Shown: positions 5,896-32,000 of the stretch, piece by piece
Position numbering within the stretch: position 1 is the stretch's first letter
Layout of the letters: each line of letters opens with the position of its first letter
From: an uncultured bacterium
Lineage (GTDB): Bacteria; Auribacterota; JACPWU01
Direction of reading: 5' to 3'
Length of the DNA stretch: 32,000 nt
Assembly: GCA_964640155.1 (NCBI GenBank)
Contig: CAZXEQ010000001.1
Coordinates: 111,256-143,255, forward strand
Notes under the pieces: generated by a model
Databases searched by the model: none
Seen by the model: only the letters and a program-made list of their open reading frames with translations
Told to the model about the DNA's origin: nothing
Made by a program: the position numbers and the translations under genes

Positions 5896-5945
5896 TGCGG
5901 GCCTTTCGTTGAATGTGTGGAATATTCTTTCCTTCTTCTAAGAAA

Positions 5946-5973
5946 ATTTTATCAGGCTGATAGAAAGTTTCAA
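5946..5973 (-). promoter_or_regulatory. Promoter candidate for acd-etfBA with an overlapping palindrome TATCAGnCTGATA
   Basis: On the minus strand: TTGAAA (5968-5973), a 16-nt spacer, then TAAAAT (5946-5951), about 50 nt upstream of the ATG at 5895. The 13-nt palindrome tatcaggctgata (5950-5962) spans the spacer and -10 element. Confidence 0.3.
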
Positions 5974-6035
5974 GAAGATTCGTCAATCAGAGGACGTTTA
6001 TAAACACAAAACCCATGCAAATCTACCAACTGTTC

Positions 6036-6347
6036 CTACGCACGAACTAAACCTAAAGCTTTAATTGAAGATATACGATTTAATTCTTTCCTTAAATGCT
6101 TACTTTCTTCTTCCAAATCATAATCGTCTTGCAATCCCAACCAAAACTGAGGAGTACTCCCAAAAAATCTAGAAAATCTCAATGCAACGGGCACGGTGAC
6201 TCTTCTTTTTCCCTTAATAATTTCGGAAATTGCCGTTTGTGGAATATGCGTTTCCTTAGCCAACCGATAGGCTGTAATCTTCATGGGAATTAAGAATTCT
6301 TCTTTTAAAATTTCCCCAGGATGTATATTTTTTAATCTGTTTATCAT
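6036..6347 (-). CDS. higA: HigA-family antitoxin (XRE-type HTH)
   Basis: The 103-aa sequence IHPGEILKEEFL.P..IT.Y.LAK...IP...ISEII.GKR..T...ALR.S.FFG.....WL.LQ..YDL is the classic HigA/VapI signature. GAGGTGA lies upstream of the ATG, 11 nt after the higB stop codon. Confidence 0.85.
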   Translation of the reverse strand: MINRLKNIHPGEILKEEFLIPMKITAYRLAKETHIPQTAISEIIKGKRRVTVPVALRFSRFFGSTPQFWLGLQDDYDLEEESKHLRKELNRISSIKALGLVRA

Positions 6348-6358
6348 AAATCACCTCT

Positions 6359-6753
6359 CTAGTGATAATCTGCAATTTCGACGTTGTATGCATCTCCATC
6401 AATCCATTTACAAGTCAGTTCATTTATTTCTACTTATAAATTCTGACAGTACTAAGGATAAGGGAGCTCAAAACCCTATCACCAGAGCAATGATCTATGT
6501 AAGTTTTGCAGATCTCCTTAGTAAAGCAAACTCTCCATTGATCATTGATCCTAATACTACAACCTCCTTCTCTATCTCCCTTTAATTTTTCCAACCTATT
6601 AGAGGGTGGAATCATTAAATCGGAAAGAACCATAGCATTATTGAGCATTCTAAGCTTTCTTCGAGAAACATTTTGAATGTCCGAAGGTAATTTGCGAGAT
6701 TTTATCCCTTCCCATATCTTCTTCGTCTCTACATCACCAAAGCCTTTGATCAT
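6359..6753 (-). pseudogene. higB: HigB-family (RelE/ParE superfamily) toxin gene interrupted by a 110-nt insertion
   Basis: Codons 1-78 (6753 down to 6520) read MIKGFGDVETKKIWEG...LKGDREGGCSIRINDQWRVCFT, as in HigB. The canonical C-terminus KWIDGDAYNVEIADYH* is encoded at 6409 down to 6359, in a different frame. Removing 6410-6519 restores a 94-codon in-frame HigB. As it stands, the frame reads through into the insertion and stops at 6430. Confidence 0.7.
6410..6519 (-). other. 110-nt insertion splitting higB (origin unknown)
   Basis: The boundaries are inferred from where HigB-like coding sense is lost and regained. TAA is present at both junctions (acTAAggag... / ...ttgTAAatgg). No convincing terminal inverted repeats were found. 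There is an internal hairpin GATAGGG-ttttgagct-CCCTTATC. Confidence 0.55.
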
Positions 6754-6758
6754 ATATA

Positions 6759-6787
6759 ATACTAACTTATTTCATTACTATTGTCAA
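6759..6787 (-). promoter_or_regulatory. Promoter candidate for higBA (near-leaderless)
   Basis: On the minus strand: TTGACA (6782-6787), a 17-nt spacer, then TAGTAT (6759-6764), only 5 nt before the higB ATG (6751-6753). Confidence 0.35.
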
Positions 6788-6830
6788 ACGATATCATTTA
6801 GACACAGGAGGATAACGAAGTTAAATTCTA

Positions 6831-9800
6831 TTAAGCAGATATTTCAACGAACGATCTTCCAGTGGTTATTTCTTTCCGGTGAGGTCGTGGCATAGGATCT
6901 TTTTCATGCACTACTACAATGTAAATTGTTTCTTCTCCACTCATCTTTTGTCTTTGCATAGAAAAATTCTCAATCCGCATAGATTCATGCCCAGTTAAAG
7001 ATTCCCCTTCTAGCAAAGCACTTAGAACAATTCTTAAATCCATGGGACCTTTTGAGAAATCAATGTAAATTCTCTGTGTTAATCCTGCACGCTTGCCCAT
7101 CATTTGACTTAAAAGTTGCTGCAAAGCGGATGACAAGGGAATACTTTTGGGCTCTCGGCCTACTCCTTGATTAATTCTTACTTCTGCCATTGAAAGATCA
7201 AGTTCTAGGCCTTCAGAATCTTTATTCAAATATTTCTGAATTTGATCAACTAATTGGGCTACACGATTCTCTTTTTTTCTCTTTTGAATTTGAGCTGCAG
7301 AAGAAGCAACCGTTCTCTGTTCGTCCGCTGGAAGTCTCTTAGATAACTCCTCCACTGCTGCTTCAAGCAAAGCTCCACGTAAAAAACCTAGAGGGATATC
7401 TCCTGCTTTTATGATATCTCCCCCAATGTCATCCATTTTTTGAGCAGAAACAATAATGGCTTTGGCTAATTCTTGAGGAGGAATTTTTTGGAGCAGGAGT
7501 TCAATCTCTGCCTTTGCAATAGCTTTTTTCAATTGATCTAAATCAGCTTGAGAAATTTGGGCATCTTGAATTACTTGCTCACTTGTTCTGGAATCTTTTC
7601 CTTTGTTATTCGCGACAACACCCCCGCTGTCATCCCCGAGTGTTCCTATCGGGGATCCATTTTTTTCCCTATATTCCCTTCTATTCATTTCAATTTTAAT
7701 TAAAGTAGTCAGAGCAGCATGATTATTTTTTAGAAGGAACAGAAAAAGATCCTTTCCTATGTAAAGAGTAGATCTTTCTTCCCTGGCTCTTTTAGCAGCA
7801 TCGCCGCCCATTCCAAAGTGAGCATAGCTTGTGCCTTTTTCATTTCTTGCTACATAAGTCCGGCCAGAAAAAAGCACAAGGCGTGTAGATTTGAAAAGAT
7901 TTTGTATGTCAGGAGATAAAGTAGAAACATATTGAGCTAATTTATCACCAAAACCAATTTTCTGATTATCCTGAGCCGCATTTTCAACCACAAAACTCAT
8001 GGCTTGATCTGTTACTTGCGTTTTAGTCGTGGCCTCAATTCCAGCTTCTCCTAAATCTCTTTTCACATCCTGCCCAACTTCTGCATTCTCAATCCCTTGC
8101 GTATGACTCACCTCAAAATCAGGGGCAAAACCTAAATTACCTGAAGGGGTTGAAGAAGACTGAGGTATAGGAGGAGTTGCTACGTTGGGACTCTTCTCTC
8201 TAACAAAAGCTTGGGCCGTACCAGTGGCTTTTAGATTGCGAGATTTTAAAATACCACTAGAACCTCCTTTGACTATAAGTTTAATAAAACCATTCAAAAT
8301 TTCATATTTACCTTCTGCCTGTAATCTTTCCTCCACCTTTTTCAAAGTCTCCATTGGACTCACCAAAAATCCTACCATATTCAAAAGCATACGCTGACGA
8401 GGAGAAAGTTGAGCTTCAGTGGCCTTCGCCTCTGCTTCATGCACCCATCCTCCATTGGCTTTAACATAAGCTAAGACTTCAGGAGAATCCCATCTCAGAA
8501 CGTTATCTTTAAATCCACTAACATTTACTGTTAAATTTTTAGGATTTGGATGTTGTCTAAAAAATTCAAAAATAGTAGCTAGATCTTGTACTTGTGTATC
8601 GCGCAAATCTAATTTAGTTAAATTTAAACCATTTAATGCACGAATGTCTTTGTCTTTTACAGGTTGCATCCAAAAGATTAATTCCTGTAGATTTGTTAGA
8701 CTTTTTAATTTATGAATATTTTTTATCTCTTTAGCGAATCTTAAATCTAAAGAGAAAAACCCTTCTTTTATTTTGAATGCAATTTTAATTTGAACTTCAT
8801 CCAACTTTAAATCTTCTCTCAAAAACTTTAAAATCAATTGCTTTTGTCTTTCCTGTTCAGCATCAGGAATGGGTGAAGATTGTGAAGTTACCTTTGCTTG
8901 AACATCTTCTGCATTTTTTCGGACAATATAAGCTTTCACTTCAGGAGAATCATAGTTATACATATGCTCATCTGTGCTCATCCTTCCTTCATTTCTCAGA
9001 GTAACTCTTAAATTTTCAGGATGAGGATGCCGTGTAAAAAGTTCACCAAGACCAGGCATATAATCATTAAAGCTAAGTTCTGTTTCAAATACCCTAAATA
9101 CAGAGGAAATAATTAATTCAGATAAGTTTTCTAACCCATAGAGAGGCGATAAGTCATGAACCAAAGTGTTCAACACTAATTTTTTTAAATTCGTCAACCC
9201 ACTCAATTTGCGAATGTCTTGCACTTGCGTCCGACTAAGATCTAATTCAAGAAATCCATCGTCTCTTACTGCAAATCGTCGATTTATTTCGTCTGAATCC
9301 ATACCAAGATCGTTTAAAAAGTTCAGAATCACTTCCCTTTGCCGCTTACCCTCAGCATCAGATATGGCAGCGATCCCAGCAGTCCCTGTTTTTACCGCAG
9401 CTTCTTCTGCATTCTTTCGAGCGATATATTCCTGCACATCCTTGTCATCAATTTTGTATTCTCTTAATTCTTTTGGAAGAACTCTTGTATTTACTTTAAA
9501 ATTTCTGCCATCGGGATGTTGTCGAAATAATTCGAAAATTTCGTCCTCTGAAGAAGTAAGTCTCATAATTACTACTTCCGTCAAATTTAAACCTCTTAAT
9601 GCAGAAAGATCACCAATATTATTGAATACTACTTTCTTTAATCGAGTCATCCTTTTTAAAAGAGAAATATTTGGATGATCAGTCGCCAAAGAATCAATAT
9701 CTTGCCCTTCAAATTTAGGAGGACGTGCTTTATAAATGAAACTCAATTCTAAGAAATCATTTTCTTTTACCTCCAAAGCCTGGCTTATTTGGTACTCAGT

Positions 9801-12800
9801 TAAACCATATCCTCTCAAATATTCTTCAATTTCTCTTTTTTGCTCTTCAAGAGACAATTCAGGCTCAGAGTTTTCTAAAATACCCACTATAGAAGGTAAG
9901 GCTCTTAATACTGCATCTCGATTTTTGCGAGCCTTATAATCCTTCACTTTCTCAGAATTCTTGTTAAGAACTTCTTCTCCAAATTTTACTTCCAAATCAG
10001 GGTTTGGATGAGTAAGAATAAGCTCAAAAATCTGATCCCGAAATTGTTCTTGATCTCCTTCACTAAATAAACTAAATAAATCAGTTACGCGAATACTTAG
10101 CTGTTTTAAACTTCTTAATTTACTGATCTCCTTCAGAGCGATAGGTGTAGTATCAAAACCGAATTCTTCTAAGTGGGCTAAATCTTTTAAATCATCCAAG
10201 TCTCTAACTTCGTGACAATGTGCTAAATACAATCTCTTTAAATTTTTTAAGTTTCTTATCCCACTCAAATCTTTTAAATCACGCAAACCAAGAATCAATT
10301 CTTCCACTTGTCCTGCATTTTCTAAAAATCCGAGATTTTCAAACTCAAAATCTTGGACTATCATTTTTTTTAACTGCGTTAATCTATGTAATAGATCATT
10401 AAACTCTCTAAGTGCATCCTCAGAAAATGCTTTTCCAACTAAATTTAATTCTAAAACTCCACCATCTAAAATATTAATACTGCTTTCAGACAGTTTCCAC
10501 TTTTCTAAAAATGCTTCAACCAACTTCTTTTGTTCTTCTGCCTCAAACTTCTCACCTGCTTCAATTATACGTAATATTTCAGGATTTTCGGCATCATATG
10601 ATCTTGTACCATCTTGATTCACCACACTAAGATTCCTACGATTAGAATGAGCGTGGAAAAGACCTTGTATGAATATATTCTCTATTTCTTCATGTATTCC
10701 TACTCCTGTTAAATCTAGAGATACCAATTTTTTTAAACTAAGAAAAAGTTCATGCTCTTTTATTGTAATCTTAAATTTTGAACCATTAAGGTCCAAACTT
10801 TCTAAATCCATTCCTTCAATGGGAGATAGATCTTTAATATTTAAAGTTTCTACCAATCTTAATTGCTTAATCCTTTTTCTTCCTCTTAAGAATTCTATAT
10901 CTTTAAGATTTAAACGGTTCAGGTTTACTTCTAAGAAGGCATCATACGATCTAGTTACAACTGCAAATTCTGCAGCATCCTTGCTAATTCCTCTTCCCAT
11001 AAGATCATTTATAATTTGCAGCCTTTCTTCTTCGACTTGCTGTCGATCGGCTGAAACTACTACTCCAGCAGCAGATGTTTGTAACATTTTTACATCGTAT
11101 AATTTTCCTTCTTTGTTAATCACCCGAAGATTTTGGCGATTGGGATGTCGCCAAAAGATTTGAAAGATAGTCCTATCATCAACAGCTAATCCTTTTAAAT
11201 TGAGTTCTCTTAGATTAACTAAACTTATCAAAACATCTATTTCAGGTTCTCCTATAACTACAATCGATCCTTCAAGATGTAACTCTTCTAAATGAGGAAT
11301 ACCTTCTAAAACTGAAATATCTGACACTTTTGTGCCATTTAAATTAAGGACTTTTAGCAAGGTCATTCCTCTCAAACGAGAAATGTCTGCAACACGGGGA
11401 AGATCACTAAGATTCAACGCAAGAAAACCATCCGGAGTTAATGTTAGACGATCTGAAATTTCCCAGTCATTCAATTGGTACTTTTCTTTTAAAAATTCTC
11501 TAATCTCTGCTTTTTGAGTCTCCCGGCGTTCTTCAAAATAAGTTCGACCTTCTGGTTCCCAACGATATTCTTTTTTTATCCTAGCATCGTCTTTCTTTTC
11601 ATTATCATTTTCAAAAAGTTGTATTGTTAAATTTTCTCGATTAGGATGGTGGATGAAGTATTCTAAAACCTTCTCCTCTGTTATATCTGAAGCCCATAAA
11701 GCCAAAACCTTTAACTTTGTCAATCTATTCAATCGAAGCTGTTCGGGAACTAAAGCTAAAATAGTGATTTCTTCTAACTGGGTTAATTCACCTAAACCAG
11801 AAAGGGGGATTTCATTTGCACCAGCTAAAAATATTTTCTTTAAGTAAGGCAATTCTTTCAATACTGCTATATCCGTATCAGAATGTCCCAATCCAAAAAG
11901 AATTTCACAAACACGTGTCATTCCTTTTAAGAAAGAAACATCTTCAGGATATGAACCTTCAAGATCTACAATAAGGAAATTACCCTCTTTAATAGTCACT
12001 TTCTTTTCAGCTGTTTCTCTAGGGATTGTCCTTGCAACTAAAGCATCGATGATTAATTTTCTTTGTCTTTCTACTTCAAAAGACTCGAATACCCTTATAT
12101 CTGCTAGTGATTTTTCAGGATCAAATCTTGCAATATCTTCCGTAGAAGCTCCGACAGCCTTTTTGGGAGTCATTCCCCAAGTCTCAACCTCTACTTTTCT
12201 TCCCTCGCCTTTACCTTTTAAAATATAAATACTTCCCGAAATATTCGAAGTTATAATGCGTTCCCCATCTGAAGACCATACAACACTTCCTTCACTACTT
12301 CTGACCGATTCATCCGATTTTAAATAAAGCACCCAGTCATCTCCCCCTCTTTTCCCCCAAATTTGTAATCTGCTTCCATCTGCCACAGATACTATTCGCT
12401 TACTATCTGGAGACCATGCAATACCAGTGACTCTACCCTTATGTTGTTTTGGTTCTGAACTGATCCATTGATTTTTTTCATCTTTCTTCCAAACACGCAA
12501 TGTCTTATCCGATGATGCGGACACAATTTGAGTTCCATCCGGAGACCATGACACACTGGTTATAGGACCCGTATGGCCCTTTAACACATCCCCACTTATC
12601 CATTTTCCTTCACTATCTTTCTTCCAAATATTCAATGTTCCATCAGCTGATCCTGATATAATTTGTGTTCCATCAGGTGACCACGCAACACCTTGTCCAT
12701 CCATTCTAATGGAACTCTTTCTTAAAAACTCTGGACCACCCCATTTTCCTGCACTATTTTTCTGCCAGATCCGCAATGCACCATCACCCCATCCCGATAC

Positions 12801-27800: not shown

Positions 27801-30800
27801 TTCAGTAGCCGTTGCTTTCATTTGAATTCCTAACGAATTATTCTTTTCTTCTCCAAAGATACGATCCTGCAATCCATAAAGCAAGGCTTGCCCCGTTCGA
27901 CCTCGTAACGCATTCCATTGAATTAATGCAAGTTCTGCTTCATTATGACGATTTGACGGAAGTTGTGACTTAATGTATCGGATAAGATCTTCAGCTCTAA
28001 TATATTGATCCATAGGAATAGGAAGTAGTGATAAAATATATTCCAGGTAAGATTTAACTCTCGTATATTGATCTATATTCGGCAGATTTCTTACATCTTT
28101 TCCCACCCCTCTTAAATAAGTATGAGCTGTCACACCTTCGGGAAGTTCTTTGGGGTGTAAATAAAAATATCCTTCGCATACTTCATGAAACAACGCTATA
28201 GGATTCTCTAAAAGTTCTCTCCTTAAATAAAGAACCTTGCCATCCGAAAATCCTTTTACAGCTGAATGCTCTGGGAGAATTTTTACTTGGTTACTCGAAA
28301 GAAAATTACGAAAGTAAATTCTTAACGGAGAGCCTTCTTGAATTTCTCGATCAAAATTTGCTCGAGTTTGTGGATCTAATCCTCTAAGCCATTCATCAAA
28401 TGAAAAAGTTTTTGTTCCTTCTTCTAATCGAAGGTCTCTTGTTTTTTCAGCTTTTGCATAAAGAGGCTTTCCATTCGTCGTCGTAAAACTGACCACCCCA
28501 TTTGATTCTGTGGCTATAACATCTCCCGTTACCACCTCTTGAAAATCCGGATCCAAATACAATTTTCCGGTGAGACCGCCTGTAGATGGTCTAAGAGGTT
28601 TTAATCCTGATACTTTCGAGTTCAAAAGCTCAACCAGTTTATTATAATATTCTAAAACAGCTTGAGCTGTACGACCATGGCGCTGGATAGACTCCTTCAT
28701 CAAAAGAATAAACGGATCAAAATCATCTCGATTATCATGCAAAAGTCGATCCTCTTCATATTTAATCGCGTACTCCCATGACTCGAATGACTCTGCTGTT
28801 GAAATAGCATCTTCTATTTCACCCTCTTCTATAAATGCTCTTAGTTCATTAAAAAATGTTTTGATCTCTGATTCGTTTAGAACTTGACAGGATTGAATTT
28901 GCTTTTCTGCAAAAACTCTCTTCCTTTCTAAAACATCTTTTTCACTAGGAGTTTTCGAAAAATCAATTCCATTGGCCTTGTCTAAAACAAATCCTGCCAA
29001 ATTTTCACCCAAATCACATTGTCGTCTGACTTGGCTTGAAAACAAGTTAAACACTCGTGAAAATTCTCCATCCAAATCTAAAAAACACTTCCTCCATAAT
29101 TCAGTATCTGTCATAAACTCATCTAGATTCATTCTAGACACCCCACCCCACAAAGGACGATCAGAAATAGAATTAGCCTTATCTAACGCTTCTCGAAAAA
29201 GAGGGTTTATACTTGTAATAGTTGGATTTTTTCCTCCATTACGCTTTGGCGTCAAACTAAAAGGATCTTCTGATAAAAAATAATAATTATCATGAAAAAA
29301 CATTTTTCCTGCTGCAATTGCTTGACATAAAGAAACATCTCCTGTTACCAAATTGGGAAATCCCCGTAAACCCTTATCAAAATCTAACCTACCCGTATAT
29401 AATAGAAGAGAAATAAAAAGTTCAGGATCCAGAAAATCCAAGGTAATGACTCTAATCTTTTTATCTCTAATACGAATTTCTTCATAACCCAAAGCATCCT
29501 TTTCGAGTTTTTCTTCAACCATAACCCCTGGCATTCTAAATACTGTCACTCCTTCTTCAGGGAAAGATCTAGGATCTTTTTCCATCGCTTCCTTTAAGGA
29601 GTCCATATAACGCTCAAAAGCTTCCGGCCTTTGATAATAAGCGAAGCCCCATGCGCTTTGAGTCGTACTGTTTAAGCTGCTACTCATTTCTGATAATACA
29701 GCTTTATCTGTTTTATTTTTCGAATCTACTATCTGCCTCAAAACTTCTACACGTGACTGAATAATTTCTTCTTTTTTTGTTTCTTGAATTACGTCATTTC
29801 GCCTTACAATCTCTGGATCAATCAAAACACTTCCTTTTTGAAATTTTGCAGGGACTTCGCCTTTATTTCTGGAGACTGCAAAACCTGTTGGAATCATATA
29901 AAAATCGGCATCGGAAAAAGGATCTCGATCTTCATAAAAATCATTGGTTCTAGCTCCCAAAACAGGAATGATCACTTTTATTCTAGAACCATCTTCATGA
30001 TAGCGAGTATGAGTTATTTCATGCCTTAAACCTCCTTTAACGAACTCCAGATTGTCTAGTCCAAAAAAGAATGAAACATCTGCCTTTTCAATATCATCAG
30101 TTTCTGAATAAATCAGATTCACATTTGGAAGAGTTCGTAACAAAACAACGGCTCTTCTAAAAAAATCAAGATCTGGATCAGGTTGGCGGCTATCGATTAA
30201 AACATTCTTACGTAAAATGACATTGAATTTCTTATCCTGAAATCCTTCTTGATTCATTAAACTTTTAACAAAGGTGTATAATCCTCCAATATTTCCAAAT
30301 CCTCCTCCTTTATTCCATAAATACACATTGATTACTTGAAAATCTTTTTCAGTTCCTGCTTTTACATTTTCTTGATTTGGAGTTTGAGATTTCAACTCAC
30401 GAACCAACTCTTGAAATTTAGATCTTTCTTGTACGTAGGCGTATAAAAAATGAGAAAAATTATTATTTCCAAATACCGTCTCAACTATTTGAATCGCATG
30501 TCGAGATCGATCTGTCCAGTCGCCAGATAAATGAGCCAGTAAACTTGAGAAAAGATAATATTGAACTTTCAAGACAGGGGAATTCGAATTTTTTTCATTA
30601 AAAAAAATGAATAAATTTTGAGGCAGATCATACGCTGCACCTAAAAAATAATCATTTTCATGCCATACTTTAGCCTCACACTTTGTAAATTTTGCTTTGC
30701 ATCGAATAGAATCACAAATATCTTCAATGGCCTCCGAAAATGCTTTTTGATCTGCATCACTTAACAAAGTCATTCTTTCCTTAAAAAGGAGATAAAATTG

Positions 30801-32000
30801 TGAAGTCTCTTTATCCATATTTTTAACATTGTGATCTTCCAACGTTCTCCTTTGAATATCTTGGACAGCTAATTCGTTTCCATTTTGACCACAAAAAGCC
30901 AATACATCAGTCGACTTAGCAGTTAAATTTAACTTTCCAAAAAAAACTTCAAACATAGCAATAAGTCCGGGATACTCAGATTGATAATTCTTTTGCAGAA
31001 AATCTACGGTTATTTCTGCTTGTGTCTGATCACTAGGATTAAGTTCAGCAAGCTTTCCACTGATTTCTTCAGGATAAAACTCTGCAATAATTTTAAGAAT
31101 ATTTGCAATTTGTTCTGAATTGAGTGTATCTAAAAAAGCTTTGTCTTTACCCTCTCTCATCAATTTATTTAAAAGTTCGTTAAACTTTTGCCTTCTTACT
31201 TCTGAAGATCCAAGCATTTCTTCCCACAACCTTCGTTCATGCTCATCAAAAGTACCTTTGGCCACACGCTCGAGCATTGCTCCAAAAGAAGGCAAAGCCA
31301 AAGTCCAATATCCGTCTTTCTGAACTCTAGAGGCCAAACGCTTTTCAGAAAATTCATTTTCATCAAATGAGATATTCTCATCCATCATTAATTTTTCATA
31401 AAGAACATCTGAACCTAGTTCTGTAACTTTGGGGGTCAAAGTAATATATGAAATTCCCTTTTCTTCTAAGAGCTTTTGTATACCTTCGGTGTGAAAACCT
31501 CCAGTAATTAAAACAGGGGTTTGGGGATGATGGATGGTGCCATCCACTGCCTTTAACGCATTTTCCGTCATTACTTTGTCTCGCTCTAGAGCGTATTGAT
31601 AAAAGTGCTGGGAAGATTGAATTAAATGATGAAGCGACTCTATGTTTGGGATTGCTTCGTCAGCCGTTGCAATCGGCTTCCTCGCAATGACATGCGCATT
31701 AGAGATCTTGTCATTGCGAACGACTGAAAGGAGTGAAGCAATCTCTGTAAGTTTTTTTTGAAATTTATCAAAATCCAACTTCTTTATTCTCTCCAAATCT
31801 TTTCTGGGCAATTTTAACTGAATGAAGTCATTTACGAGTTCCCATTCTTGTTTTAACTTCCATTCATCTTGTAAATTTTCTTTTTGAACCATCCTTTCAA
31901 TCATGTTTTTTAAATCGCTTAAACAAGTTTCGATTAACTTTTCCAAATCCATTTTTTCTTGTTTTTCAAGAAATGAGAAATATTCCTCAAGAAGTGGAAA
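6831..32000 (-). CDS. Giant multidomain protein, at least 8,373 aa; the reading frame is still open at the right window edge, so the true start is probably outside the window
   Basis: A single stop-free frame runs from the TAA at 6831-6833 up to nt 32000 in an AT-rich sequence. The first in-window ATG is at 31950-31952, but the 16 codons upstream of it (FPLLEEYFSFLEKQEK) contain no stop. The translation contains many recognisable motifs, listed as sub-features below. Confidence 0.93.
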   Translation of the reverse strand, partial: FPLLEEYFSFLEKQEKMDLEKLIETCLSDLKNMIERMVQKENLQDEWKLKQEWELVNDFIQLKLPRKDLERIKKLDFDKFQKKLTEIASLLSVVRNDKISNAHVIARKPIATADEAIPNIESLHHLIQSSQHFYQYALERDKVMTENALKAVDGTIHHPQTPVLITGGFHTEGIQKLLEEKGISYITLTPKVTELGSDVLYEKLMMDENISFDENEFSEKRLASRVQKDGYWTLALPSFGAMLERVAKGTFDEHERRLWEEMLGSSEVRRQKFNELLNKLMREGKDKAFLDTLNSEQIANILKIIAEFYPEEISGKLAELNPSDQTQAEITVDFLQKNYQSEYPGLIAMFEVFFGKLNLTAKSTDVLAFCGQNGNELAVQDIQRRTLEDHNVKNMDKETSQFYLLFKERMTLLSDADQKAFSEAIEDICDSIRCKAKFTKCEAKVWHENDYFLGAAYDLPQNLFIFFNEKNSNSPVLKVQYYLFSSLLAHLSGDWTDRSRHAIQIVETVFGNNNFSHFLYAYVQERSKFQELVRELKSQTPNQENVKAGTEKDFQVINVYLWNKGGGFGNIGGLYTFVKSLMNQEGFQDKKFNVILRKNVLIDSRQPDPDLDFFRRAVVLLRTLPNVNLIYSETDDIEKADVSFFFGLDNLEFVKGGLRHEITHTRYHEDGSRIKVIIPVLGARTNDFYEDRDPFSDADFYMIPTGFAVSRNKGEVPAKFQKGSVLIDPEIVRRNDVIQETKKEEIIQSRVEVLRQIVDSKNKTDKAVLSEMSSSLNSTTQSAWGFAYYQRPEAFERYMDSLKEAMEKDPRSFPEEGVTVFRMPGVMVEEKLEKDALGYEEIRIRDKKIRVITLDFLDPELFISLLLYTGRLDFDKGLRGFPNLVTGDVSLCQAIAAGKMFFHDNYYFLSEDPFSLTPKRNGGKNPTITSINPLFREALDKANSISDRPLWGGVSRMNLDEFMTDTELWRKCFLDLDGEFSRVFNLFSSQVRRQCDLGENLAGFVLDKANGIDFSKTPSEKDVLERKRVFAEKQIQSCQVLNESEIKTFFNELRAFIEEGEIEDAISTAESFESWEYAIKYEEDRLLHDNRDDFDPFILLMKESIQRHGRTAQAVLEYYNKLVELLNSKVSGLKPLRPSTGGLTGKLYLDPDFQEVVTGDVIATESNGVVSFTTTNGKPLYAKAEKTRDLRLEEGTKTFSFDEWLRGLDPQTRANFDREIQEGSPLRIYFRNFLSSNQVKILPEHSAVKGFSDGKVLYLRRELLENPIALFHEVCEGYFYLHPKELPEGVTAHTYLRGVGKDVRNLPNIDQYTRVKSYLEYILSLLPIPMDQYIRAEDLIRYIKSQLPSNRHNEAELALIQWNALRGRTGQALLYGLQDRIFGEEKNNSLGIQMKATATEREAQRQRAAASENARIQERLRQLLQIMDGANALFKGGQYQGCIERCQAFIEVMRKEFPSEIESIHKAEKLIIRAQGRVRSAALREQNPQEDYVNNYVVYHGTVPENMEAIAHEGMTAFYEPGNPIMAIYGTPDPQLAHDHVVKNGPHDKVTEVNAQSSRIPIILVLRIPKSWAKENISPESLGELEVNLEEEFGTDGFPLPIRDIPPDFIFVKTGQGMIPIREYMKQSQNLISTSSGVSQPLEEASFVGLIGKLFLDKDGKQVAIGPITATEDVNGFVSFTTSDGETKRPLYNKKKEPAQAKVLRDEQLLTFLDVIPEIDGSPIDTFEDDNSGVVSRTLTPGFETLRSMLGQSIKVLSEDSDVDGFSDGNVLYLKESLIKNPMALLHEWGEGYFVQHPDQLPGRDDSQTMALNAHTHLRGVGKDVREIASTDEGATLLESGNAIGFIDLVERTFRAEGREERINLAEFALIRLNAKKNRIGRALLHGLQDDFFGEEANNAFSTQLRECERTRPVTQTTLQIPLDVLRPASDFYSSLLMGDRLHQDFGGQDLRLAFAGLGLYEQQAKIPDYVLREVLRGRSPPALRERVRKLLENVSTLSEAEREELFEALRVAEFNVQGRLPFASDTTFSLELEFLVTDQITDDDLTSLALTPDELFLWEENKKLPAGKWEKARARVLERVQSVLPSGWRLVENSANVIEIKSANPAGEYHENTNRDWAGLKQGLTELQEILPGGLHSVHMHVGRKSLTELGDKFDDRKFDKKRFARVVKVFEAMWRALMGYGYRAPRGGFVRPAHEGMVQTAEDARGHDVMINLSSRYPTIEVKIISGLLNVDGRLDVHRLQENLWPTFALLESASTEFDRMPLASLGIPVLAGDKPSMKQILHYVDVVYGQDLVGKALALKRFLVIENESAGLSVEERKRKNDVMAYQFYKMGLGVVHELHSAHAGWDEKLIEHLTESSHLTVRLAFDLVRVGATDEVACGYFPEEFHKYLLAGLAIARRVDIPESSQEFVINWSKRFGTEEIPGPAEVLDVVTLDGLLNSLSSTDINRLIAPEREMRRKSYDWNKYFQGEGENNNFFEIKELDLKELNLIREMSLLQVLALKLAVRYAWIGKWMLKNYFFGRIFVFMMTVVVNLMEFLPVFKKWVEKKLLEAEENNWTKNLFRDESKNYNFKLDLLDIEIPPDEINQIGQNPLPKGQNPSNEGERGGLIGKLYLDPASHPGGRRVATGAITATGKDGIVTFKSTEGPLYTEDDREPRATVLDDEQPLTFEQLGLVSGTLSSGFEAHIQSVLGKPVKVLSDDSDVDGFSGGEVLYLKESLLDNPIAFFHELGEGYYHLHPEELPPGVNAHTYLRGVGKDIRNLPDINRYTDPEKLIRYIQSQLPKDRHNETEFALIRYNAARTDKNRTGRELLYGLQDEIFGEEANNGFTDEIVLGKKTRISSNSGEESSLISTFFKKWLVDIPSGQVTPTQQRIVEEHAKFLASLIYRNRPENVRKEREKNLISRFNIYTPLRFILAGIKTGYKSYGWWKDVFSFVLLASFIVPVFFLNPILGIFFTIFHFKIGIPILMTLRRAWTGEFGFVNEAVPGLWIFPTAGPKQFYQTALHEMVHVISADGDMMDIPGATAISVLREVRTLGSEYIQVNEGMRLFKENRNNPEKLWEMLAEKAGVKGKHRRDLFYSIPEYIRRGTFLQRIYRHLYPEPEWSYLLGAYVAGVAEAISLETGNPDDAWEYLKLISLGTDPVNAQREILDWRSNLPRTAEDFLERIQKGEEFSVAQFRAALRNPELREETLKLRDLLWEKIRFDEEANKTVLEEVFRVVVYAEILFDQENNPLLGISPRLRESLPLFRKYQSNLSQSSAEAVGNALLDNLSFGPELRRFSRETNPVLILNKFLRGELGRYPTLWELRTLSNHLFLMDIPGEALDEFLGKTGIGERIYALDSQESLKATANYILKLVLEYRQRYGKDPIIKEVGAGNGAHARGLNQLLEPYGIRVEASDIKDGKEAGQEADTADIILMRWPPSRANYYDRIGDFAENEVPENHPAPDYQVARRISQDSRKTLVLMGDMNGALRVTGSEAFYSFSGKHLKSINPLGLNQMPSGERLQYSHMLLPSGRLISYLQGDYDEQTVRVFRAPQAPAPPEMSSEEGQRFIEKAEKYGSFSVDASGHVASVGGITNTTVGFPLAAKLKRLGIKPTRQAQMNQGTVSFIVSDAASLQTFGDDGNNLSQTVTNYLASAEFEALDDEIKEAFKGVRLVLLAGALFNARDHRGTSYAHFGKGGKEAGEEKIESLYMGRKLFDHLAKKNQKALSILIRIEMNRLIHRRKNGQDERTSVQAARDAKVTDEELDLLLDAIAEIDPALAKIYSQREVPALSNPSTQLLTVSKLCEMGVQPLADYINGDDFKTLDESLREEFKNTGLVTMSNVQFAQGEAVSGRTHTLYIDKKLFETLARENPKALNVLIRIEMNRLKQRREKLDLRTNKQVAQEVGATDKELSLLLEAFRKVNPVLAQKYEAYIPDEVEALLQEKNTLAFVKDSNAADAVDQRLRAYAIKTGKKYVRINLRDLEEFNNLLTSIVVREDGSYGTLEGPLIDAIRSEGIIFIDYQDAQPQAALQLNSLFDAQGYLTTRWGRIEVPANLRIIGAMPNSQMRMFDVSIYSRFRNQVDLNWEYEEVLRIDKAPEDLDGIEVELYESRFFEEALIGSFRLNEKGLLEVHKGKLIQAIETGKPLILKGMPHSEDFVRKLRQIIQDGGIKFNGTFYQIPSHFSFFERSGSYEKGVSGKEIKFDDDIPENISVWSINSVTQDALFSRTKINSEIGQIVQEKGILDEGEDPICLWVTSHVSDWVWHRIMHSKRPIQIRLGPGVSIPNVYHKFANIDWSKSRSSYPEKKKLEEVNDAKAFVVNGFDRAFVLNKLVQTYPEAIVYPVTSATDLSDITSSIEIELGQHFQSKTKQVLENLRAGKTVILEGLERNLELARQLETVLSPTTPYLIENGKRVNLNELSGRLILVGSLSKFSHIKNKAFLSPDKDEIKSIVQKEFNQPGETGVMSDEDYSKLEKLMVVFGNAAGSPSISKDVLERYGGRYIFPVLGEAEELARLYPEHVNYVLAQLRQLCRYRQATGRLGPQGWREAIEAMIISRYEDFPELAAYMRVKMRLAFPMEDGRADTIDGRRLKTITNEIVYPMTLRDRYWQLMDTMSDKLLARQTIPSFFVGRQEEYEPALNQIRTAQIRDATMRGDHERAEYYKAKYGIKEIPIGSESPITTVALGDDQEDILQAREEKCIQLLGIYPAVFLRGPPGVGKSHLSQELAQKLKLKNYGPVSVGADISESDVLVARQFNAEQKRVAYITQTIAQWALDTEGGLLTIDEANLSHPDFWSFLGGIFEAKPYVWINGRQHFLTDRHKIIFTGNQEKMTGRRFQNLLLRYVPTVNFSEFDQAFYEKQIKNYLLPEQAQYASIIYDLFLAFKKMGEGRSFSLRDIQEISYRVRSLPATGTEQVVEIAWEVMRGLFTVEERVSLQHIIAKKYGVRILKEKSVKTGAREVHRAEGQPPIVYTQSVLDFQDTVKQFLLMRDRRLADALEEKTFPQGKRGLLFEGPSGRGKDLVAAHLLEKEGYQKGRLDEPEEIGKNPKKFYHITASLNYEDMARVIERARREGSIVILSEMNQIPSAILEGKLNASLTGEAAEGFALIGTINSIDFGGRERLSTALQNRLIYHRISDYPQIELEEILRESLGGRISPDLLKRLVGWHCYLRDTIENPSERPTIRELIRAGELLVRGEAAAVTPPAPLNVRGESVSPLMLKGDQGELLLEDLFSQIFSKIYGPVYFKILEADGKTFDYEKAEKYQESTQVDNAIVLEKNAQMIIPVNGRKVRLAWDAVTKNGGYYDAKKHVIALSTENPIGENPKVLDHEASHGLFTHLIIFPEQLWPRKSWFNLYMWLEDHRMENALRHHFPKVDLSDNQEIAFVEAVQQANFEKLIKMKFSSVFLYALSTYARGLMSKQVIEALDKVWEVHQGKYKPNPFKLALKYLDVARTIIGVDPAIRAQDTSLESEWGMIPLTLDQEEVEFQYFKMLRELSKHPEMILDYEKLVEGEKEEKLEESEEETSGDELSATKVEVANQRLAALDLVGALSVSKEAPQKVTQVNRLAANIVMVKISKIKIMRDAILHYMIMTPVRAILFCLKTLWKILKKVDHTIFSGIEKTLAKVLLRIRYRVIDQAKTEKEIDIPQWIKSLRPLLTVVELATTIDFLYLAISGKASVVSIMLCYGIVLIFNMILFILFPSLFSSSFINTHAKESKYEPKIIRDQQKIEDGLPTYTEYNSIDEAVKASLQHERKIPEGTTDPLEVLFPTFQERSNALRKLLKPFFQNKLEFGSKVYGPDGSALNVQGLVDGDPNRFFVKSGVTEEETPKEIILIIPKEGLGPESLNPLSEAAFIYLFSQGFTVTVYTGNNVRQKGINHPTTLRAALKAPSNCDPALIRQDLATRSRGSYIVTTLDEVQACVEAEFLHALLVAPEAEKTEAKETPKKAEPVTSQTDDDKSRENVKRWIALLEDSIKNEKDELIKRKAEDALGLIYAKKFSQQELEAKVDEKPAGSRAAAIALGIQYVEMGIEKNSNNITNWGIRLTTSSEPHLDHIAEIMGRVYAKQVEKGLSITNLEKGLQDENAAIRMAAVIALGLVYVKMLEDGKDVDLSLIQNMLKDKDPNVASAAVDTFESVYAKMHEKNKKIPLSDIAKDTNEMVQYAITRAIGYAMDASPEVITQGSPLARLGAAIVSGPIYAERVKNDKMDVSELEKMLEIGNDVQRLAATIALGKVCLDAIGKIETGSTKQEAGNPVIPESSNRGSIESESNLVFGPITKTVTMFDAYELEKIILRDSEKLPVSSRRSGSVHCLACSPDGTQVVAGLFEGPLRLLEKKDEEWIVSNLEGHKNTVYSVSWSPDGNRIVSVSLDGKFRIWEKNAEGKWDSSEQFLERVSKVSDVAWSPDGTQFVSGWGDGALRIWQKNSAGKWGGPEFLRKSSIRMDGQGVAWSPDGTQIISGSADGTLNIWKKDSEGKWISGDVLKGHTGPITSVSWSPDGTQIVSASSDKTLRVWKKDEKNQWISSEPKQHKGRVTGIAWSPDSKRIVSVADGSRLQIWGKRGGDDWVLYLKSDESVRSSEGSVVWSSDGERIITSNISGSIYILKGKGEGRKVEVETWGMTPKKAVGASTEDIARFDPEKSLADIRVFESFEVERQRKLIIDALVARTIPRETAEKKVTIKEGNFLIVDLEGSYPEDVSFLKGMTRVCEILFGLGHSDTDIAVLKELPYLKKIFLAGANEIPLSGLGELTQLEEITILALVPEQLRLNRLTKLKVLALWASDITEEKVLEYFIHHPNRENLTIQLFENDNEKKDDARIKKEYRWEPEGRTYFEERRETQKAEIREFLKEKYQLNDWEISDRLTLTPDGFLALNLSDLPRVADISRLRGMTLLKVLNLNGTKVSDISVLEGIPHLEELHLEGSIVVIGEPEIDVLISLVNLRELNLKGLAVDDRTIFQIFWRHPNRQNLRVINKEGKLYDVKMLQTSAAGVVVSADRQQVEEERLQIINDLMGRGISKDAAEFAVVTRSYDAFLEVNLNRLNLKDIEFLRGRKRIKQLRLVETLNIKDLSPIEGMDLESLDLNGSKFKITIKEHELFLSLKKLVSLDLTGVGIHEEIENIFIQGLFHAHSNRRNLSVVNQDGTRSYDAENPEILRIIEAGEKFEAEEQKKLVEAFLEKWKLSESSINILDGGVLELNLVGKAFSEDALREFNDLLHRLTQLKKMIVQDFEFENLGFLENAGQVEELILGLRDLKDLSGIRNLKNLKRLYLAHCHEVRDLDDLKDLAHLEEFGFDTTPIALKEISKLRSLKQLSIRVTDLFSLFSEGDQEQFRDQIFELILTHPNPDLEVKFGEEVLNKNSEKVKDYKARKNRDAVLRALPSIVGILENSEPELSLEEQKREIEEYLRGYGLTEYQISQALEVKENDFLELSFIYKARPPKFEGQDIDSLATDHPNISLLKRMTRLKKVVFNNIGDLSALRGLNLTEVVIMRLTSSEDEIFELFRQHPDGRNFKVNTRVLPKELREYKIDDKDVQEYIARKNAEEAAVKTGTAGIAAISDAEGKRQREVILNFLNDLGMDSDEINRRFAVRDDGFLELDLSRTQVQDIRKLSGLTNLKKLVLNTLVHDLSPLYGLENLSELIISSVFRVFETELSFNDYMPGLGELFTRHPHPENLRVTLRNEGRMSTDEHMYNYDSPEVKAYIVRKNAEDVQAKVTSQSSPIPDAEQERQKQLILKFLREDLKLDEVQIKIAFKIKEGFFSLDLRFAKEIKNIHKLKSLTNLQELIFWMQPVKDKDIRALNGLNLTKLDLRDTQVQDLATIFEFFRQHPNPKNLTVNVSGFKDNVLRWDSPEVLAYVKANGGWVHEAEAKATEAQLSPRQRMLLNMVGFLVSPMETLKKVEERLQAEGKYEILNGFIKLIVKGGSSGILKSRNLKATGTAQAFVREKSPNVATPPIPQSSSTPSGNLGFAPDFEVSHTQGIENAEVGQDVKRDLGEAGIEATTKTQVTDQAMSFVVENAAQDNQKIGFGDKLAQYVSTLSPDIQNLFKSTRLVLFSGRTYVARNEKGTSYAHFGMGGDAAKRAREERSTLYIGKDLFLFLLKNNHAALTTLIKIEMNRREYREKNGSPIGTLGDDSGGVVANNKGKDSRTSEQVIQDAQISQADLDQLKKAIAKAEIELLLQKIPPQELAKAIIVSAQKMDDIGGDIIKAGDIPLGFLRGALLEAAVEELSKRLPADEQRTVASSAAQIQKRKKENRVAQLVDQIQKYLNKDSEGLELDLSMAEVRINQGVGREPKSIPLSSALQQLLSQMMGKRAGLTQRIYIDFSKGPMDLRIVLSALLEGESLTGHESMRIENFSMQRQKMSGEETIYIVVVHEKDPMPRPHRKEITTGRSFVEISA
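7660..7965 (-). repeat. Giant protein: unknown module S, copy C, near the C-terminus
   Basis: KLAQYVSTLSPDIQNLFKSTRLVLFSGRTYVARNEKGTSYAHFGMGGDAAKRAREERSTLYIGKDLFLFLLKNNHAALTTLIKIEMNRREYREKNG. Confidence 0.7.
8410..12090 (-). repeat. Giant protein: seven tandem composite units (~160-215 aa each), each made of a helical head, 3-5 leucine-rich repeats and a conserved cap F..HPN..NL.V
   Basis: The cap motifs are EYFIHHPNRENLTI (~11650), FWRHPNRQNLRV (~11140), FHAHSNRRNLSV (~10645), ILTHPNPDLEV (~10000), FRQHPDGRNFKV (~9512), FTRHPHPENLRV (~9022) and FRQHPNPKNLTV (~8547). LRRs look like LSGLTNLKKLVLNTLVHDLSPLYGLENLSELII. Heads look like EEQKKLVEAFLEKWKLSE...GVLELNL. Confidence 0.8.
12215..13120 (-). 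other. Giant protein: seven-bladed WD40 beta-propeller
   Basis: There are seven units of the form ...V.SV.WSPDG..IVS.S.D.TLRIW.K: CLACSPDGTQVV, SVSWSPDGNRIV, DVAWSPDGTQFV, GVAWSPDGTQII, SVSWSPDGTQIV, GIAWSPDSKRIV and VVWSSDGERII. Confidence 0.9.
13325..14085 (-). other. Giant protein: HEAT-like (PBS-lyase type) repeats
   Basis: A ...AA.ALG..Y.. unit recurs: AEDALGLIYAK, SRAAAIALGIQYVE, AAIRMAAVIALGLVYVK, DPNVASAAVDTFESVYAK, ARLGAAIVSGPIYAE and VQRLAATIALGKV. Confidence 0.6.
14925..15060 (-). other. Giant protein: hydrophobic TM segment(s)
   Basis: The sequence is LLTVVELATTIDFLYLAISGKASVVSIMLCYGIVLIFNMILFILFPSLF. At least one long uncharged stretch is compatible with a membrane helix. Confidence 0.55.
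15900..16200 (-). other. Giant protein: second HExxH motif (HEASH at 16035-16049), possibly a DUF2201_N-like metallopeptidase region downstream of the AAA+ array
   Basis: The sequence is KKHVIALSTENPIGENPKVLDHEASHGLFTH. HExxH followed by a further His is seen directly; the family assignment is inference. Confidence 0.4.
16440..20210 (-). other. Giant protein: concatenated AAA+ (AAA_5 / MoxR-midasin-dynein-like) array with two canonical P-loops and about four degenerate upstream units
   Basis: The first canonical unit has Walker A GPPGVGKS (17871-17894) and Walker B LLTIDEAN (17670-17693). The second has Walker A GPSGRGKD (16971-16994) and Walker B-like IVILSEMN (16785-16808). Upstream AAA_5-like units lack P-loops, for example GPLIDAIRSEGIIFIDYQDAQPQAALQLNSLFD...IEVPANLRIIGAMP, KLIQAIETGKPLILKG and LENLRAGKTVILEGLERN. 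Confidence 0.7.
20360..20605 (-). repeat. Giant protein: unknown module S, copy B (degenerate)
   Basis: DDFKTLDESLREEFKNTGLVTMSNVQFAQGEAVSGRTHTLYIDKKLFETLARENPKALNVLIRIEMNRLKQRREK; this copy lacks the GTSYAHFG box. Confidence 0.65.
20800..21175 (-). repeat. Giant protein: unknown module S, copy A (GTSYAHFG...IEMNR)
   Basis: TVSFIVSDAASLQTF...EFEALDDEIKEAFKGVRLVLLAGALFNARDHRGTSYAHFGKGGKEAGEEKIESLYMGRKLFDHLAKKNQKALSILIRIEMNRLIHRRKNG. Confidence 0.7.
21540..21950 (-). other. Giant protein: class I SAM-dependent methyltransferase-like region
   Basis: Motif I IIKEVGAGNGAHA lies at 21846-21875. An acidic residue follows at the end of the next strand (IRVEASD), and then ADIILMRWPP (~21722-21748). 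Confidence 0.45.
22962..23230 (-). other. Giant protein: two predicted TM helices followed by an HExxH zinc-metallopeptidase motif (HEMVH at 22962-22976)
   Basis: The sequence WWKDVFSFVLLASFIVPVFFLNPILGIFFTIFHFKIGIPILMTL is followed about 45 aa later by QTALHEMVHVISADGD. Confidence 0.45.
23514..24173 (-). repeat. Giant protein: unknown module R, copy 3 (220 aa)
   Basis: GLIGKLYLDP...IVTFKSTEGPLY...DGFSGGEVLYLKESLLDNPIAFFHELGEGYYHLHPEELPPGVNAHTYLRGVGKDIRNLPDI...FALIRYNAARTDKNRTGRELLYGLQDEIFGEEANN. Confidence 0.8.
25230..25930 (-). other. Giant protein: glutamine-synthetase-fold amidoligase-like signature (Amidoligase_2 / carboxylate-amine ligase type)
   Basis: The ordered motifs are TFSLELEF (25896-25919), NVIEIKSANP, GGLHSVHMHVG (SVHMHVG at 25569-25589), YRAPRGGFVRP and YPTIEVKIISG (~25321-25346). 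This mirrors the E.E ... E..SP ... HvHvG ... R ... E.R/K strand pattern of that fold. Confidence 0.45.
26304..27056 (-). repeat. Giant protein: unknown module R, copy 2 (251 aa)
   Basis: GLIGKLFLDK...FVSFTTSDGETKRPLY...DGFSDGNVLYLKESLIKNPMALLHEWGEGYFVQHPDQLPG...NAHTHLRGVGKDVREI...FALIRLNAKKNRIGRALLHGLQDDFFGEEANN. Confidence 0.8.
27150..27515 (-). other. Giant protein: H-Y-E type (diphtheria toxin / exotoxin A-like) ADP-ribosyltransferase signature
   Basis: The motif YVVYHGTVPENMEAIAHEGM places the candidate His codon at 27501-27503. AIYGTPDPQLAHDH follows with its Tyr 29 residues after that His (compare ExoA GFYIAGDPALAYGY, Tyr at +30). SLGELEVNLEEE follows later (compare ExoA GGRLETILG, which carries the catalytic Glu). 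Confidence 0.4.
27837..28580 (-). repeat. Giant protein: unknown module R, copy 1 (248 aa)
   Basis: GLTGKLYLDP...VVSFTTTNGKPLY...KGFSDGKVLYLRRELLENPIALFHEVCEGYFYLHPKELPEGVTAHTYLRGVGKDVRNLPNI...LALIQWNA...GQALLYGLQDRIFGEEKNN. Confidence 0.8.
29270..30350 (-). other. Giant protein: EarP-like (GT-B, arginine rhamnosyltransferase family) signature, approximate bounds
   Basis: The N-terminal VINVYLWNKGGGFGNIGGLYTFVKSL resembles EarP DIFC.V.DN.GDIGV.WRLA..L, with N in place of D in GDIG. The mid motif AWGFAYYQRPEAF resembles ISLFAYENPAL. The C-terminal PNLVTGDVSLCQAIAAGKMFFHDNYY resembles N.VRGEDSFVRAQWAG.P..WHIY. The ~360-aa span fits EarP length. All comparisons are from memory. Confidence 0.35.
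31440..32000 (-). other. Giant protein: C-terminal half of a TraB/GumN/Tiki-like domain (second GxxH motif)
   Basis: The segment ALERDKVMTENALKAV...TPVLITGGFHTEGIQKLLEEKGISYITL matches the family pattern eRN..m...i...vGagHL.G..G....L...Gy.v. The N-terminal half of such a domain, with the first GxxH motif, is not in the window. Confidence 0.4.

Follow-up and report, generated by a model that had tools for sequence, protein, structure and literature searches.

We describe a single giant open reading frame (ORF) that fills most of the minus strand of a 32,000-nucleotide stretch of metagenomic DNA from an uncultured bacterium of the Auribacterota (contig CAZXEQ010000001.1, positions 111,256 to 143,255), referred to here as the window. 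The 25-kb frame is one real gene, and we hold this with high confidence. It is a variant of the giant mosaic proteins known from Omnitrophota and not an unprecedented kind of gene. Judged from its sequence, it probably belongs to a family in which a Sec-type signal peptide and a leader domain of ~520 residues are followed by interchangeable cargo.

The reading frame, its start and the leader domain

The ORF (6831..32000, minus strand) consists of 8,389 sense codons without a stop at 6834-32000, followed by a stop codon at 6831-6833. It is open at the end of the window, and its 5' end lies beyond. Residues (aa) are numbered so that residue i lies at window position 32000-3(i-1), and all parts of the ORF given below are on the minus strand. 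Stops make up ~7% of random codons at this composition, and arithmetic from the base counts puts the chance of 8,389 stop-free codons at ~10^-275. Over this stretch, each of the remaining five frames is interrupted by 382-791 stops per ~8,389 codons. The uninterrupted frame of more than 25 kb reported in the original prediction is thus reproduced.

The codon frequencies of the ORF correlate with those of five flanking housekeeping genes with r = 0.887 (relative synonymous codon usage, r = 0.873). Taken in segments of 1,000 codons, the correlation is 0.75-0.90 in frame versus 0.20-0.46 out of frame in every segment, so that the native codon and base composition claimed earlier is borne out and all segments look coding. 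A Logan assembly of run SRR8893623 (contig 72096, 29.6 kb) shows 100% identity to window positions 151-16753, a comparison that covers 16,603 readable bases, and the same gene is annotated there as a 7,645-residue product ended by the end of the contig. Collapsed or chimeric repeats are no concern, because the strongest DNA repeats inside the ORF reach 75% identity over 235 bp. Matches to homologues are scattered along the frame, all in one reading frame.

The first ATG in the window, at 31952, would give 8,373 codons. It is not the true start of the ORF, because the homologous frame in a relative, L003, extends 330 codons further upstream, to MFLNDQGSQTFRRGLSICLIVAFFFTGLFPGDFSASA. L003 is a 2,070-bp contig from a metagenome-assembled genome (MAG) of Candidatus Auribacterota, a phylum within the Planctomycetota-Verrucomicrobiota-Chlamydiota (PVC) group, and it was the sole match in the species-representative genome collection. 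Its identity to the first 90 residues of the window frame is 80% at the protein level and 89.5% at the DNA level. The start of the L003 protein reads as a classical signal peptide, and by analogy the full giant protein would have ~8,719 residues.

The beginning of the window frame (aa 1-215, 31356..32000) is the C-terminal half of the leader domain; the preceding ~330 residues, with the signal-peptide-like start among them, fall beyond the window. Using phmmer, aa 1-215 align to aa ~330-550 of more than 40 homologues, and both C-terminal leader motifs (FYxxAxxRD ... VLITGGFHTxG ... ISY..P) are found at aa 130-200, here in the form FYxYALERD and VLITGGFHTEG. Alignment of the N termini of these proteins reveals a conserved domain of ~520 residues after a signal-peptide-like start, with the motifs IQDxHxxxEAQ, LEGAxG and GAEY in the first half of the domain and FYxxAxxRD and VLITGGFHT in its C-terminal part. 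The first-half motifs and the signal-peptide-like start are present in L003; for the giant ORF they fall upstream of the window. The leader heads proteins of ~500 to >7,700 residues with diverse cargo, named Omnitrophota giants included, so that the search for homologous giant ORFs proposed with the original prediction yielded relatives. Most of the long proteins that carry the R1 or ligase domains described below (large homologues of 1.7-7.7 thousand residues) also match aa 1-215.

An unbiased scan of Joint Genome Institute metagenomes with the leader domain found 294 relatives, and the loci of 80 of these were read for the statistics that follow. The leader was N-terminal in 80/80 loci, in ORFs of 421 to >3,909 residues, and a hydrophobic stretch was present near the start in 69 of 73 metagenome relatives. 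Downstream sequence of at least 9 kb was available for 44 loci; in 10 of these the leader forms a stand-alone protein of ~505-545 residues, and in 9 the ORF runs past the end of the locus. The cargo is highly variable: R1 occurs in 2/80 loci, and the GS-like ligase and the Tpt1-like domain each in 0/80. In other members of the family the cargo includes AA_kinase, PFK or PGM domains or is dark to Pfam. Two homologues that contain R1, P0042 and P0051, are named Candidatus Omnitrophota.

Stand-alone leader genes (~510 residues) are followed 10-50 bp downstream by ORFs of 1,000-1,900 residues in 10 of 16 loci, as in L025, L040, L042, L048, L057, L062, L064, L066 and L080; one of these ORFs has, by eye, a PPDK_N-like sequence. 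ORFs of 2,800-3,200 residues often precede the stand-alone leader genes. Very large genes thus cluster at these loci, as though the architecture of the giant had been divided among adjoining genes.

The leader domain shows faint matches to ChaN/Tiki (PF04187) in 3 of 11 members, the best with E = 0.015, and a PDB profile search with the leader gave no match. We read its motifs as resembling the paired GxxH-type motifs of Tiki, TraB and ChaN, with conserved E/R. A relationship of the leader to ChaN/Tiki was considered and found no support beyond these faint matches.

Two observations concern the surroundings of relatives. In L003, a stretch of ~800 bp ahead of the start of the homologous giant gene (1-802) contains no ORF of at least 60 codons and no Rfam match, and appears to be an unusually long non-coding leader; neither this region nor the window gave a match in Rfam or tRNA scans. 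A fragment of a phage-integrase gene (L085 1-378) opens the contig of the leader homologue P0002, from a MAG named as Chlamydiota, just upstream of the large gene.

Domains along the chain

Pfam searches over all tiles of the giant ORF matched only AAA_5, HEAT, WD40 and leucine-rich repeat (LRR) profiles, and NCBIfam and PADLOC scans returned only P-loop and LRR/WD matches. The first 4,600 residues gave no Pfam match at E < 0.01 and no NCBIfam or PADLOC match, and aa 1-4500 had no match among PDB sequences. Domains in this part of the protein were delineated by self-comparison and by an exhaustive HMMER search with aa 1115-2314, which returned 128 relatives and three domain families.

The first family is a repeat of ~300 residues, R1, present in three copies that are 36-58% identical: aa 1115-1416 (27753..28658), aa 1621-1921 (26238..27140) and aa 2585-2850 (23451..24248). 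The motifs of copy 1 are GLxGK, HExxE, HTxLRGxGKDxR, ExxLIxxN and GLQD. Invariant in the family are G31, G136, H158, E159, H179, R183, G184, G186, G262, D265 and N273, and position 162 is glutamate (HExxE) or, in a few homologues, histidine (HExxH). The AlphaFold model of R1 has a predicted local distance difference test score (pLDDT) of 85.3 and a predicted template modelling score (pTM) of 0.80, and it places three strands ahead of the HExxE helix, as in zincins. R1 had no match in Pfam, in PDB profile searches, or in Foldseek searches against PDB and BFVD. R1 is predicted to be a new enzyme-like domain. The segment H-T-x-L-R-G-x-G-K-D-x-R shares its spacing with the Fic motif HxFx(D/E)GNGRxxR, which may be coincidence. 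A Fic reading of this motif was rejected, as Pfam, PDB profile and Foldseek searches gave no Fic match.

The second family covers aa 1455-1640 (27081..27638), with YHGT, GxxAFxE and GPHD invariant. Its profile weakly matches several structures of Tpt1/KptA RNA 2'-phosphotransferases (E = 0.0017-0.04) over ~29 residues around YHGT, and the homologue P0031 has a faint PTS_2-RNA match. The Tpt1/KptA enzymes are members of the ADP-ribosyltransferase superfamily. An ADP-ribosyltransferase identity of this domain, as had been predicted for one of the heads, is plausible from these profile matches, the best of which (E = 0.0017) extends over those ~29 residues only.

The third family, at aa 1966-2410 (24771..26105), contains the motifs TFSLELEF, SVHMHVG, FEAMWRAL and PTIE. 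The AlphaFold model of this region has a pLDDT of 89.8 and a pTM of 0.88. Nearly all matches listed by Foldseek in the PDB are to glutamine synthetase (GS) and GmaS, mostly with a probability of 0.9-1.0 and E = 3e-4 to 1e-2, and the TM-scores of 0.26-0.33 mark them as distant. The family has conserved ExE, HxH, E..R and E positions, which fit a GS-type active site; the ExE strand and the HxH motif resemble the ATP-site signature of GS. Neither this domain nor its stand-alone homologues matched Pfam (Gln-synt_C, GCS2, Amidoligase_2), and PDB profile matches were spurious only. The domain is also found in stand-alone proteins of 500-650 residues and in other very long proteins. At the level of fold, the model points to a distant GS-fold carboxylate-amine ligase-like domain outside the curated families. 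The amidoligase-like head of the original prediction thus holds at the level of fold (best E = 3e-4, TM-scores of ~0.3), and not for membership of a curated family.

Other enzymatic heads proposed earlier fared less well. The stretch at aa 216-1114 (28659..31355), previously called glycosyltransferase-like, contains an HExxH at aa 660 and has no recognisable domain. It gave no Pfam or PDB match, profile and structure searches lend the glycosyltransferase assignment no support, and homologues were found only for aa ~216-357. The region at aa 3009-3460 (21621..22976) combines an HExxH (ALHEMVHV, aa 3009) with a methyltransferase-like VGAGNG stretch at the level of motifs. It had no Pfam or PDB match, and Pfam scans aimed at the methyltransferase-like part and at the HExxH stretches were empty even at E <= 10, so that no search supports the methyltransferase claim. 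A third HExxH (VLDHEASHGLF, aa 5318, 16035..16049) is likewise a motif without profile support. The ORF has three such HExxH motifs where 0.23 are expected, so that the HExxH-type heads of the original prediction are supported at the level of motifs only. For aa 2315-3600, no homologue was found among the candidates that shared words with it.

The hydrophobic segments claimed earlier were seen again by hydropathy, four to six in the ORF. A transmembrane helix is predicted at aa ~2524-2545 (24366..24431; score 2.14 in a 19-residue Kyte-Doolittle window, from hydropathy only) and a transmembrane hairpin at aa ~2936-2976 (23073..23195; scores 2.29 and 1.97), with basic residues on both flanks. 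A hydrophobic cluster at aa ~5560-5700 (14901..15323) comprises one strong and two weaker candidate helices, with a peak of 2.71 at aa 5672-5690.

Self-comparison also revealed a second repeat of ~200 residues, R2, in three copies. Two of them, aa 3574-3778 and aa 3797-3976 (together 20073..21281), stand ahead of the AAA+ array, and the third, aa 7964-8182 (7455-8111), is near the C terminus; identity between copies is 36-38%. R2 is characterised by TSYAHFGxGG ... LYxGxxLF ... LIRIEMNRL. It has no Pfam match and no homologue of known function. A segment of R2, LY..L...N..AL..LI.IE, loosely resembles the part of R1 around HExxE.

The AAA+ array extends over aa 3931-5200 (16401..20210) and is defined by the AAA_5 profile, Walker motifs and a collinear homologue, P0136. 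Walker A and Walker B are both intact in two modules, one at aa 4690-4850 (GPPGVGKS, with its P-loop at aa 4703, and IDEAN) and one at aa 4990-5140 (GPSGRGKD, aa 5003). The AAA_5 match has E = 1e-20 at aa 4699-4820. A degenerate module at aa ~4000-4055 aligns in register over the stretch between Walker B and sensor 1, with weak support from hhalign (P = 0.0066), and three further degenerate candidates seen by eye were not significant in hhalign. Of the multi-AAA+ motor-like array in the original prediction, two intact AAA_5 modules and one degenerate module remain, and a motor ring of six modules is not shown. P0136, the single detectable relative of aa 3931-5250, has a collinear array with 27% and 20% identity. 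It is an uncharacterised LRR protein of 2,191 residues without a leader domain (locus L084 6001-12576). Its genome is that of an unrelated Gram-negative bacterium of another lineage, with genes for succinate dehydrogenase, citrate synthase, 2-oxoglutarate dehydrogenase and an OmpA-like protein.

The tail of the protein is a scaffold of repeats, for which all three types in the original prediction, HEAT, WD40 and LRR, were confirmed by Pfam profiles. HEAT repeats occupy aa ~5958-6225 (13326..14129; HEAT E = 1.4e-9, HEAT_2 E = 3.5e-8), with the Pfam HEAT match at aa ~6064-6144, and a WD40 beta-propeller occupies aa ~6262-6601 (12198..13214; E = 6.5e-40 in 5 stretches). Both were also seen as internal repeats. 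They are followed at aa ~6620-7870 (8391..12143) by ~7 modules of ~170 residues, each with a helical start, LRRs and an end of the type F..HPN..NL.V. These modules are 21-34% identical to each other, and LRR_4 matches with E = 1e-10 to 1e-15 occur in several places at aa 6880-7620, together with an internalin-like match. The last part, aa 8183-8389 (within 6834..8111), is a C-terminal tail without an assigned domain.

Known giant proteins and neighbouring genes

Giant proteins of Omnitrophota are encoded by very long ORFs that mix enzymes, transmembrane helices, HEAT/WD/TPR scaffolds and AAA_5. A signal peptide or transmembrane helices occur in 94% of them, their N-terminal regions carry a signal peptide without a recognisable domain, and much of their sequence is dark (10.1101/2023.11.21.568195; 10.64898/2026.06.07.730766). 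The Archaeovorin-type giants described by West-Roberts in 2023 are encoded by genes of >90,000 bp (>30,000 residues). Their set comprises glycosyl transferase, methyltransferase, glycosyl hydrolase, peptidase and NUDIX domains, SecA_DEAD is common, and numerous transmembrane helices stand between the soluble domains (10.1101/2023.11.21.568195). A different type of protein, of >5,000 residues and with a secretory signal peptide, is patchily distributed in Auribacterota and neighbouring PVC lineages and has been proposed to act in cell-cell interaction or predation (PMC12057145). These proteins contain CASH beta-helix, RHS, TSP3 and lyase domains and are without transmembrane helices.

The giant ORF resembles the Omnitrophota proteins in several respects. 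It is one long ORF with enzyme-like domains, interspersed predicted hydrophobic helices, HEAT/WD-type scaffolds and AAA_5. Its predicted signal peptide is followed by an N-terminal region without a recognised domain, a large fraction is dark to Pfam, and its internal repeats have diverged at the DNA level. There is also direct homology, as some proteins assigned by name to Candidatus Omnitrophota contain the leader domain and R1. In contrast, at ~8.7 thousand residues it falls below the thresholds of 10-30 thousand residues used in those studies, its host is Auribacterota-like, and SecA_DEAD, C39, S8, dockerin, NUDIX, glycosyltransferase and methyltransferase Pfam domains are absent from it. 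Its cargo of three R1 copies, Tpt1-like and GS-like domains, three R2 copies, the AAA array and 7 LRR modules is not described in the Omnitrophota giant studies. We place the gene among the known giant mosaics because some of its modules have homologues in the Omnitrophota set, while it is shorter, comes from another phylum and carries other cargo. It shares its phylum-level neighbourhood and a predicted secretory signal peptide with the PMC12057145 proteins, but none of their CASH, RHS, TSP3 and lyase domains was found in it.

Likenesses to other systems are more limited. Concatenated AAA_5-type modules, some with degenerate nucleotide sites, are also found in midasin, dynein and MoxR-type ATPases. 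In the giant ORF, two intact modules and one degenerate module could be shown, compared with the six of a midasin- or dynein-type ring, and there is no MIDAS/VWA domain. With polymorphic and multifunctional toxins (Rhs, MARTX, large clostridial toxins) it shares a conserved N-terminal trafficking part, enzymatic cargo that varies across relatives, an ADP-ribosyltransferase (ART)-like head and possible internal processing domains. However, its cargo is spread along the chain and not placed at the C-terminal tip, and neither an adjacent immunity gene nor a dedicated secretion system was seen in the window. No Pfam match was found in the ORF for RHS/YD repeats, nor for C80 cysteine protease, RtxA repeats or GT44 at E <= 0.01, and over aa 1-5100 these last three had none even at E <= 10. 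Among the GS-like amidoligases (GS/GmaS, GCS2/YbdK, Amidoligase_2), the ligase-like domain matches GS/GmaS at the level of fold with TM ~0.3, and forms a family of its own. The original prediction was therefore right that the combination is not that of MARTX, RTX, Rhs, large clostridial toxins or midasin, of which no Pfam domains are present; it overlooked the giant mosaics of Omnitrophota and the PVC group, with which the leader and R1 are shared.

Downstream of the ORF, 77 bp from its stop codon and on the same strand, lies a pair of genes for a HigB-like toxin (6430-6753, E = 5e-17 to HigB-like_toxin) and a HigA-type helix-turn-helix antitoxin (6036-6347, E = 4e-8 to HTH_3). This pair is regarded as context, without a demonstrated part in the system. 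The earlier claim that no mobility genes flank the ORF in the window holds, but this pair adjoins the 3' end of the ORF. A sigma-70-like site is present at 6787-6759, and such sites are no more frequent than expected from shuffled sequence. The next genes on the same strand (1206-5895) have housekeeping functions and encode acyl-CoA dehydrogenase, the beta and alpha subunits of electron transfer flavoprotein (ETF), BamD/YfiO and LptE; this gene content indicates a diderm bacterium. On the plus strand, a stop-free frame of 319 codons (3-959) runs off the start of the window. It is annotated in the Logan assembly as a gene of 269 residues, and has no Pfam match even at E <= 10.

Predicted topology, possible function and significance

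The best explanation overall, which we favour tentatively and at somewhat less than even confidence, is a multi-enzyme protein that is anchored in the membrane and exported in part, with its core of AAA+ modules in the cytoplasm and its tail serving as a binding platform. The signal peptide would export the N-terminal third, that is, the leader, the unassigned stretch and the Tpt1/ART-like and GS-like heads with R1 between them. Export of the N terminus is proposed because the signal peptide is conserved in relatives. The helix at aa ~2524 and the hairpin at aa ~2936-2976 would then anchor the chain in the inner membrane, and the former, a single helix, would divide the exported third from the cytoplasmic middle. 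The middle part, with the third R1, the HExxH stretches, R2 and the AAA+ array with its two intact ATP sites, would be cytoplasmic; the array is placed there because basic residues flank the hairpin on both sides, following the positive-inside rule. Hydrolysis of ATP by the array could drive unfolding, extrusion or remodelling, and the HEAT, WD40 and LRR tail may be a binding platform. The side of the membrane on which this tail resides is left free by the uncertain number of helices at aa ~5560-5700. The exported heads may act on or inside another cell, in attachment or attack, as has been proposed for the Omnitrophota giants. This role is proposed because the folds of the heads usually depend on ATP or NAD+; for the protein as a whole, the site of action would be the cell envelope or other cells. 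In addition, the chain may be cut into pieces by R1 or the HExxH sites. Taken by itself, the assignment of topology and role in this scheme is rather doubtful.

Several points weigh against this explanation. The topology is read from hydropathy only, a type of prediction described as unreliable in published work on such giants, and the presence of a signal peptide is deduced from the 80%-identical relative L003. The predicted membrane crossing has copies of R1 to either side of it, an odd arrangement if R1 has one function, and autoprocessing by R1 is a guess, as R1 is without a detectable relative of known function. Folds that depend on ATP or NAD would be paradoxical outside the cytoplasm unless they reached the inside of a target cell, and an apparatus for such delivery was not seen; the same paradox has been noted for the Omnitrophota giants. 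No domain could be assigned to more than half of the protein. Finally, Auribacterota have been inferred to be free-living fermenters and not predators (PMC9324843).

An unlikely alternative is that the product is a polyprotein, which its R1 or HExxH peptidase-like domains would cleave into independent enzymes and scaffolds, with its size being a packaging device. The three copies of R1 bracket the enzyme heads, their HExxE (HExxH in some homologues) has the strand-strand-strand-helix layout of zincins, and three further HExxH motifs exceed the 0.23 expected. Leader genes that stand alone with large ORFs closely downstream suggest that the pieces can function unlinked. Yet R1 has no significant similarity to peptidases in Pfam, PDB sequence or Foldseek searches (PDB and BFVD), and cleavage sites are not known. 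Processing of this type is moreover compatible with a membrane-anchored, partly exported protein and does not exclude it.

It appears less probable still that the ORF encodes a cytoplasmic protein for conflict or defence, built around an NTPase with STAND/NLR-like or MoxR-like logic, in which the HEAT, WD40 and LRR repeats sense an invader, the AAA+ modules switch, and the ART-like, ligase and HExxH heads are effectors. The order of enzyme heads, P-loop NTPase and long repeat arrays resembles that of defence NTPases, ART-like domains are common toxins, a toxin-antitoxin pair adjoins the ORF, and nSTAND3 scored 29.3 bits in a 600-residue tile against a cut-off of 27.2. This match is partial, however (positions 9-71 of 155), and covers the P-loop only; AAA_5 scores far higher, NACHT reaches E = 0.017, and PADLOC found no significant family match, its best hit (E = 0.003) again being to the P-loop only. 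The signal peptide and leader domain that define the family, as well as the internal hydrophobic segments, favour a membrane or exported protein, and the relatives hold domains of a metabolic type.

That several genes were falsely fused by assembly or sequencing errors, or that the frame is open but non-coding, is very improbable: the sequence is from a metagenome and one sample is known to carry the giant ORF, but the second assembly is identical over 16.6 kb, near-identical internal repeats are absent, codon usage is uniform in frame along all 25 kb, homologous domains follow in one frame from end to end, and relatives have the same kind of fused architecture.

The mechanism behind the giant mosaic genes found in uncultured PVC bacteria is an acknowledged puzzle, and a gene of ~26 kb is small enough to be cloned in pieces. 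The leader domain provides a practical marker to find and classify the family, and it links stand-alone secreted proteins of ~510 residues to giants laden with cargo. R1, R2, the GS-fold ligase and the Tpt1-like domain are newly defined families, two of them with confident structure models. A far-reaching possibility, which we consider improbable at present, is that the leader family represents widespread effector machines made of one polypeptide in Omnitrophota, Auribacterota and their relatives. A Sec-exported Tiki/ChaN-like head would carry exchangeable cassettes that are freed by R1, extruded by the AAA+ modules and delivered to neighbouring cells. If true, this would amount to the logic of polymorphic toxins without a known secretion system. 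The gene sharpens a known paradox, in that enzyme folds of the ATP and NAD type stand behind a signal peptide. Should exported heads indeed be combined with a cytoplasmic motor in a single membrane-anchored chain, the giant protein would represent a new bacterial way to present or deliver enzymes.

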